Assembly (NCBI GenBank): GCA_965213685.1
Contig: CBDBZY010000013.1
Span: forward strand, 1-64,000
From: a bacterium
Lineage (GTDB): Bacteria; UBA8248
Reading direction: 5' to 3'
DNA length: 64,000 nucleotides
Under the pieces are notes generated by a model that was not told where the DNA came from, made no database searches, and saw nothing but the letters and a program-made list of their open reading frames with translations. Below are positions 39,453 through 40,016 of the stretch, piece after piece. The stretch's first letter is position 1. Every line of letters begins with the position of its first letter. The position numbers and the translations under genes were made by a program.

Positions 39453-40016
39453 ATGGCGGACGGGCGGCGGCAGGGCGCATTGTTTCATCCGGCGGCTGCG
39501 GTTGCGGCCGCGCGCTGGCTGGAGCGGGTGCGCGCGGAATTTTCTGTCTTTGTGTCGGATGCGGGAATTGCGGAAATCCGGATGCTGGACGGCGTGGAAA
39601 AGCCCCGCGCGGCGCGCCATGCGAACGCGCAATCCACGCCGTTGCGTCGGCGGGCGGCGGAGCAGATACGGGAATACCTGCGCGGTGACCGGAGGAGGTT
39701 TCAGCTGCGGGCGGATCTCTCCTCCCTGTCCCCCTTCATGGAGGCGGTGCTCGGGCAGACGAGAAAGATTCCCTACGGCGAGACGCGCTCCTATGGCTGG
39801 GTGGCGCGGGAGATCGGCAGTCCCGGGGCGTCGCGGGCCGTCGGCCAGGCGTTGCACAGAAACCCCGTTCCGCTCCTCATACCCTGACATCGCGTTATCG
39901 CGGGCTCGGGCGAGCTCGGCGGATTCGCCAGCGGCCTGCCGCTGAAGGCGGCGCTCCTGGCCCATGAGGGGCATGTCGAAATCGCGGGAGGAAGCCATGT
40001 CGAGACCGATGCGTGA
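39453..40016 (+). CDS. ogt: Methylated-DNA--protein-cysteine methyltransferase with Sec at the acceptor site (P-U-H-R)
   Basis: [33 protein letters not shown](39885-87)[19 protein letters not shown].HE. Confidence 0.87.
39901..39918 (+). promoter_or_regulatory. Putative SECIS element
   Basis: 7-bp stem CGGGCTC/GAGCTCG (one G-U), loop GGGC, 20 nt after the TGA. Confidence 0.65.

Follow-up and report, generated by a model that had tools for sequence, protein, structure and literature searches.

The locus described here raises a simple question: does a TGA codon inside a DNA-repair gene end the protein, or does it supply the residue on which the repair reaction depends? The gene lies in the window, by which we mean the whole 64,000-nucleotide stretch that was analysed (positions 1 to 64,000 of contig CBDBZY010000013.1, assembly GCA_965213685.1), from a bacterium of the phylum UBA8248, and it carries TGA at the position of the alkyl-accepting cysteine of the Ogt/MGMT family. 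We consider, with a probability of about 0.9, that it is a genuine SelB/SECIS-recoded selenoprotein version of the stand-alone Ogt/MGMT enzyme (Sec-Ogt from here on). This reading is carried by the in-frame TGA and its conservation, a covarying hairpin behind it, most of the selenocysteine (Sec) machinery, and a fold with conserved active-site residues. The features of the gene itself are these:

39453..40016, + strand: coding sequence of the predicted Sec-containing O6-alkylguanine-DNA alkyltransferase (Ogt/MGMT type), 187 codons, with its stop TGA at 40014-40016
39436..39444, + strand: purine-rich GGGGAGGGA, a putative ribosome-binding site 8 nt 5' of the ATG, read from the sequence
39885..39887, + strand: in-frame UGA, codon 145, at the acceptor position, predicted to be read as Sec and aligned to the Cys of solved OGTs
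39901..39918, + strand: SECIS-type hairpin CGGGCUC-GGGC-GAGCUCG, with a 7-bp stem (39901-39907/39912-39918) and the apical loop GGGC (39908-39911)

Starting from the ATG at 39453, the frame remains open through 39885-39887 to 40014-40016 once the TGA is translated as U, and the acceptor motif is encoded as CCC (39882-39884)-TGA (39885-39887)-CAT-CGC, giving the protein motif P-U-H-R-V with U as residue 145. A preliminary description of this DNA had already read the PCHR motif as CCC-TGA-CAT-CGC and followed the frame to 40016, and both the open reading frame and the PF01035 match running across the TGA bear this out. That profile aligns to residues 94-173 over its positions 1-80 of 81 (E 2.8e-31, 107.6 bits, cut-off 27), so that the homology crosses the TGA, and TIGR00589 ('ogt') scores 98.8 bits (cut-off 46.4); PF02870, the Pfam model for the N-terminal part, found no match in Sec-Ogt at E <= 0.01. 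Conventional translation (Table 11) halts at 39887 and yields 144 aa, and the window's own gene call (P0002) is a 144-aa fragment. The same happens elsewhere: among the best 120 public protein clusters, 57 stop at the Pro that precedes the TGA, 60 have C-H-R/K and three are cut in other ways. Gene calls in public databases end Sec-Ogt proteins early, at the TGA, with the consequence that a repair gene which probably works is annotated as broken in genomes of this lineage.

The stretch 39453-40516 was compared with Logan contigs from four public runs (two studies), and no run has an alternative letter at 39885-39887. The whole stretch is covered by X1 and X2 and its part 39453-39922 by X3, all three from one study that is possibly the source of the window's DNA, while X5, from the second study, covers 39830-39950 with no differing letter in that piece. 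At 40317 the window has one base more than the X1 and X2 contigs, which means that the assembly carries indel errors, though not at the TGA. A sequencing or assembly error at the TGA is ruled out by the contigs of the four runs together with a TGA at the same codon in 43 genomes. Reassignment of TGA throughout the genome is also rejected, given that in many loci TGA is also the stop codon of these genes and that selA and selB have no internal stops. The protein beyond the codon shows the signs of selection as well. Across 28 full-length Sec orthologs there are 19 invariant columns, found on either side of the TGA, and they include Y114, R128, N137, P144, U145, H146, R147, G153, L155, G157, F158, K165, and E172; invariant residues 3' of the TGA indicate that the C-terminus is translated and selected and is not a remnant behind a stop.

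Recoding of UGA in bacteria uses a SECIS element, a stem-loop immediately 3' of the UGA with an apical loop containing G. The hairpin at 39901-39918, whose stem begins 13 nt and whose loop begins 20 nt after the UGA, fits this bacterial type and is the predicted SelB site. It is the GGGC-loop hairpin that the preliminary description placed 20 nt downstream, now found to covary in 35 orthologs. When the 35 Sec orthologs from the window's family (f1) are all aligned without gaps (33 distinct rows), 231 of 231 pair cells across the seven stem pairs hold standard pairs, and two pairs show compensatory change (G-C/C-G/A-U and C-G/U-A, 14 cells in total). The observed pairing, the number of double-change cells and the covariation score were each reached by 0 of 500 shuffles, a count that is not to be read as a probability, given that the rows share ancestry and one of them supplied the structure. 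When the 3' partner is slid by 1-3 columns the pairing drops to 26-53%. The switches in the stem are synonymous or conservative codons changing jointly, AGT going with GAA and AGC or GGC with GAG, and in the second case GCC...CUG with GCG...CUC.

The support for the hairpin is this covariation and not its folding energy. The region does not fold better than shuffled sequences (z = -0.31), and the Cys orthologs (-6.7 to -16.2 kcal/mol) are about as stable as the Sec forms (-7.6 to -17.1), so energy is uninformative in such GC-rich DNA. The eight Sec orthologs outside f1 were left out of the covariation analysis on account of their different hairpin sequences and slightly shifted positions; in all eight, a hairpin of another sequence stands roughly as far from the UGA. 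In the most distant family (f4) it reads GGRUCC-CGKGG-GGAYCU, with an A.C mismatch in two of seven, and in genome G025 it is GGCCUCC-GGC-GGAGGCC. The f4 stem (GGGUCC...GGACCU) is similar to the hairpin GGGUCC-GGA-GGACCU that this phylum has behind the UGA of its selD gene. An Rfam scan of 39700-40100 at E <= 10 returned no SECIS family and two chance-level matches (flg-Rhizobiales and ar14).

We surveyed the genome (8.0 Mb, 71 contigs) for the machinery that would act on such an element. It contains selA (564 bits, cut-off 268) with selB adjoining it on contig C5 (370 bits, cut-off 242), and a tRNA-Sec with anticodon tca on contig C44 (78.6 bits, cut-off 47). The remaining gene, selD, is found on contig C31 at about 101342-102000 (- strand, locus L018), split over all three frames in the assembly. 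Its 5' part starts correctly as the Sec type, KAGG-TGA-GSKLGPEDL followed by the GGGUCC-GGA-GGACCU hairpin, and selD is intact with one TGA in the five of five relatives checked. One could argue that the selD of this genome is truly broken, as its three frames would have it; the proven indel at 40317 and the five intact relatives are our grounds for taking the breaks as assembly error, which they probably are. The genome, G000, differs in size from the 22 others of its genus (8.0 Mb vs. 2.9-4.6 Mb), with a completeness of 94% and a contamination of 3.7%. On sequence evidence the identity given in the preliminary description, an Ogt/MGMT with Sec as acceptor, appears to hold: PF01035 and TIGR00589 assign the family, the TGA stands in independent contigs of four runs (with neither TGC nor TGT) and at the same codon in 43 genomes with the hairpin conserved and covarying, and selA, selB, and selC (tRNA-Sec) are present above their cut-offs.

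An AlphaFold2 model of Sec-Ogt, built with a 28-sequence alignment, reached a mean pLDDT of 86.5 and a pTM of 0.82. Compared with the PDB by Foldseek, its top matches (about 37) are all OGT/MGMT chains, led by the DNA-bound OGT of Mycobacterium tuberculosis (4wx9_A, TM 0.78 over 157 columns) and followed by Sulfolobus OGT, human AGT, and the C-terminal part of E. coli Ada. The M. tuberculosis chains are also matched by phmmer (E 5e-25, query residues 40-172). Residues 95-174 of Sec-Ogt align to residues 94-174 of 1eh6, and the numbering coincides with that of the human protein there. In human numbering we take N137 to be the Asn hinge, R128 the Arg finger, Y114 the pocket Tyr, and E172 the Glu of the His-Glu pair, and all four are invariant in the 28 Sec orthologs. 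Position 158, presumably Tyr in the human enzyme, is Phe in all 28.

The modelled fold and the sequence match to M. tuberculosis OGT thus point to a complete two-domain alkyltransferase, neither an alkyltransferase-like (ATL) protein nor an Ada. ATL proteins have neither the acceptor nucleophile nor the N-terminal domain, and this identity is ruled out for Sec-Ogt, in which the N-terminal domain is present along with a codon for the acceptor (UGA/Sec); S. pombe ATL gave a much poorer match (E 2.7e-7, residues 95-156 only). An Ada identity is likewise excluded, with PF01035 as the sole Pfam domain found in Sec-Ogt and an NF011964 score of 63.9 bits (cut-off 345).

Putting these elements together, and by analogy with solved AGTs for the chemical steps, we propose the following course of events. 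SelB carrying Sec-tRNA(Sec) would bind the hairpin at 39901-39918, and UGA-145 would be decoded as Sec instead of stop, giving a 187-residue two-domain alkyltransferase. Its helix-turn-helix domain would bind DNA, Arg128 would flip the damaged base into a pocket with Tyr114 and Asn137 in its lining, and the O6-alkyl carbon would be attacked by the Sec145 selenolate; one turnover would leave the protein with Se-alkyl-selenocysteine at its acceptor position. What we infer for the natural protein is that Sec is inserted, that the alkyl group passes to selenium and that the protein turns over once. With a pKa of about 5.5 for Sec vs. 8.6 for Cys, as given in a study of an engineered human enzyme (PMC4150793), Sec would be ionised at physiological pH and could serve as acceptor with no need of activation. 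Asn137, His146, and Glu172 are nevertheless all kept in Sec-Ogt, so that the road back to Cys would stay open.

A six-frame search over 51 genomes of the phylum, which make up a single class, gave a match in 50; the exception is G042 (67% complete), where the search found none. The acceptor codon could be read in 47 ortholog loci, being TGA in 43 and TGC or TGT in the other four, and Sec-Ogt with TGA is present in 43 of the 51 genomes. The TGA form occurs in all 23 genomes of the window's genus (the window's own included), in all seven of the most distant family, f4, in 3/4, 1, 1, 3/4, and 4/5 genomes of the other f1 genera, and in the one genome of family f2. Among the eight remaining genomes, which include G042, Cys orthologs are found in G047, G049, and G053 and, with a frameshift 5' of the acceptor motif, in G048 (locus L158); the Cys Ogt of G026 clusters with those of other phyla, and G024 and G056 have weaker Cys matches only. 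The Sec ortholog of G028 (L057) is itself frameshifted nine codons 3' of the TGA and has lost one G from the G-run of the hairpin loop. These frameshifts in G028 and G048 could be either assembly errors or real decay.

A tree of 58 rows was built from 46 in-phylum orthologs (leaving out the frameshifted L057) and 12 Cys outgroups, the latter picked for taxonomic spread among 80 Cys loci found with a search motif that used Cys codons. Its root was set at the midpoint, and the outgroup sample is small. One clade unites 42 Sec and three Cys orthologs (support 95/84), the Cys forms being nested in separate places, while the Cys form of G026 sits among the outgroups on a long branch. With the root placed on the outgroup side, the simplest history suggested by these sequences has Sec gained once, no later than the base of the phylum, and at least three lineages reverting to Cys. 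The Cys form of G053 (TGC) is near-identical to its Sec sisters and keeps the hairpin with one mismatch, and it has the appearance of a fresh Sec-to-Cys reversion.

Many natural Sec/Cys ortholog pairs are available, one of them involving a very recent switch, which makes a clean comparison of Sec with Cys possible; such a natural pair is formed by G052/G050 (Sec) and G053 (Cys), whose proteins are otherwise much alike. The phylum thus lets one ask what selenium buys in a non-redox, single-turnover nucleophile. The suggestion in the preliminary description that Sec gives faster or broader alkyl capture is plausible; for the recyclable Se-methyl adduct that it also named, this analysis yielded no support. 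The lineage also uses Sec widely, and Sec-Ogt may be one case of a general habit.

Sec-Ogt is not the only alkyltransferase of this genome. A second PF01035 gene on contig C25 (L024:1453-2535, - strand) encodes a canonical Ada of 360 aa with the Zn domain, the AraC HTH and a PCHRV motif with Cys (NF011964 359 bits, cut-off 345), and every genome of the genus has one Sec-Ogt together with one Cys protein in an open frame of 351-443 aa. Sec-Ogt appears to be the housekeeping alkyltransferase of a selenoprotein-rich phylum, working beside an inducible Cys-type Ada. The presence of this complete Ada could also be taken to mean that Sec is inserted but that the main role of Sec-Ogt lies outside O6-alkylguanine repair, as a sensor or scavenger of electrophiles and alkylating agents or in dealing with other adducts, and the Phe that replaces human Tyr158 in all 28 orthologs would be in keeping with a changed role. 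We find this very unlikely, as the DNA-binding and base-flipping residues of repair AGTs are all invariant and the closest fold is that of an OGT bound to DNA (4wx9_A). E. coli, too, carries Ada alongside Ogt, each of them a DNA-repair protein.

The immediate neighbours of the gene are the following:

38051-39427: acyl-CoA dehydrogenase, 25 nt 5' of Sec-Ogt
39997-40509, + strand: cupin gene, its start overlapping the end of Sec-Ogt by 20 nt

The cupin loses its frame about 107 codons in, and with the base at 40317 absent from the X1 and X2 contigs this loss is an assembly indel. Its intact ortholog (191 aa, L030:860-1435, - strand) bears a faint resemblance to cysteine dioxygenase (a match to PF05995 that stays below the cut-off, E 0.0036). 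The cupin adjoins Sec-Ogt in the window and in 30 of the 38 other f1 loci; the order acyl-CoA dehydrogenase, Sec-Ogt, cupin is constant across the genus, and several further genera of the family also have the cupin as a neighbour. In f4 and in G025, flanks of about 600 nt around Sec-Ogt did not contain it. Loci with the cupin also keep the upstream acyl-CoA dehydrogenase, for which reason the adjacency looks like inherited gene order. Somewhat farther out, the window has upstream of the Ogt locus a sulfatase ending in a fibronectin type III domain (35787-37565, + strand, PF00884, E 2e-70) and downstream of it an N6/N4 DNA methylase (41004-41837, + strand, PF01555, E 1e-24). A tandem repeat at 51295-52728 (period 372 bp, 3.8 copies, 93% matches) lies where open frames are long and might code for a 124-residue protein module in repeated copies. 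A scan of the window for read-through listed 272 candidates, unfiltered by Pfam.

The boldest reading of the locus starts from a Sec acceptor held across the phylum and vanishingly rare elsewhere, and has the Se-alkyl group removed again, possibly by way of the cupin, which would make Sec-Ogt the first alkyltransferase of its family to turn over; we hold it to be very unlikely. Put more generally, that Sec serves turnover, the Se-alkyl adduct being resolved (perhaps with the neighbouring cupin) and the protein being catalytic, seems highly improbable to us. Costly Sec in a one-shot protein, kept throughout a phylum, does ask for an explanation, and a faintly cysteine-dioxygenase-like gene directly 3' of Sec-Ogt in most f1 loci invites this one. 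We know of no AGT that turns over, however, and the cupin is a neighbour by what looks like inherited order and not in f4 or G025. Lineages that reverted to Cys have retained the gene, which suggests that the Sec and Cys forms are interchangeable, and, in a phylum reported as generally rich in selenoproteins (PMC13326102), Sec at this site may be general habit. A milder version of the turnover reading is a selected gain in rate, in substrate range, or in resistance to oxidative or nitrosative inactivation.

Finally, that the TGA is a true stop, leaving a pseudogene or a 144-residue fragment devoid of its acceptor and followed by a remnant of similarity, is barely credible in spite of the 57 public clusters (of the best 120) that end at the Pro before it, since the 42 codons after the TGA are conserved as protein (H146, R147, G153, L155, G157, F158, K165, and E172 being invariant), the hairpin covaries, and a decaying remnant would not persist in 43 genomes.

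We therefore return to Sec-Ogt as a recoded alkyltransferase and to its place among known systems. A Sec Ogt as a kind is already known, as a predicted selenoprotein in surveys since 2005, and the statement in the preliminary description that the family figures in computational selenoprotein lists was correct (PMC1287953, PMC1976440, PMC2398784, and PMC9312934). For twenty years it has been just an entry in such lists. CHY0809 of Carboxydothermus hydrogenoformans was described as a Sec-containing methylated-DNA-protein-cysteine methyltransferase with a stem-loop 3' of the UGA (Wu et al., 2005, PMC1287953), the tables of the Olavius symbiont study have two Sec sequences of the family (PMC1976440), and the GOS survey has one against 2,879 Cys homologs (PMC2398784), while two reviews list the family as a 'predicted' selenoprotein (PMC9312934 and PMC13188914). 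The phylum UBA8248, with records labelled Nitrospinota or Nitrospinae, is placed among the most selenoprotein-rich bacteria with 48-54 genes (PMC13326102), and the supplements of that work may already list its Sec-Ogt genes. Close homologs of the window's Sec-Ogt carry source names of the form 'Nitrospinae bacterium'. Our literature search, which covered sources other than subscription journals, found neither a biochemical study of a natural Sec-Ogt nor a description of a phylum-wide, ancestral and stable Sec form, of at least three reversions to Cys, or of gene calls cut at the TGA. In our view the Sec-Ogt genes of this phylum add a well-documented new lineage to a family that was already known by prediction.

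Compared by its published description, CHY0809 is the closest precedent, belonging to the same family (PF01035/COG0350) with Sec at the position of the acceptor Cys and a stem-loop after the UGA, its prediction resting on Sec/Cys homology only. The 2005 paper viewed its Sec form as unique to the organism and 'most likely evolved very recently', whereas here Sec appears ancestral and is present in 43 of 51 genomes; a phylum-wide ancestral form corrects that early view of a very recent origin in a single organism (PMC1287953). With Ada, Sec-Ogt shares the C-terminal PF01035 acceptor domain, but it has neither the Zn domain nor the AraC HTH. With the OGT of M. tuberculosis (4bhb, 4wx9) and human MGMT/AGT (1eh6, 1t38) it shares the two-domain fold, the P-x-H-R-V motif, the Asn hinge, the Arg finger, and Glu172, and it differs from them in the predicted Sec acceptor encoded by UGA, in Phe158, and in an extra N-terminal helix of about 30 residues in the model.

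The most instructive comparison is with engineered human AGT C145U, which likewise has Sec at the acceptor position of an AGT (PMC4150793). According to Haruna et al. (2014), human AGT with Sec145 shields E. coli devoid of ada and ogt from MNNG, which indicates that a selenolate acceptor works in the AGT fold, and N137A/U145 is active where N137A/C145 is dead (PMC4150793). That protein received its Sec at a UAG, by an EF-Tu-dependent route with no SECIS, and as a mixture of Sec and Ser (PMC4150793). Sec-Ogt is, in contrast, natural, evolutionarily conserved and predicted to depend on SelB and a SECIS element, and it has kept the Asn137 that the engineered Sec form no longer needed (PMC4150793).
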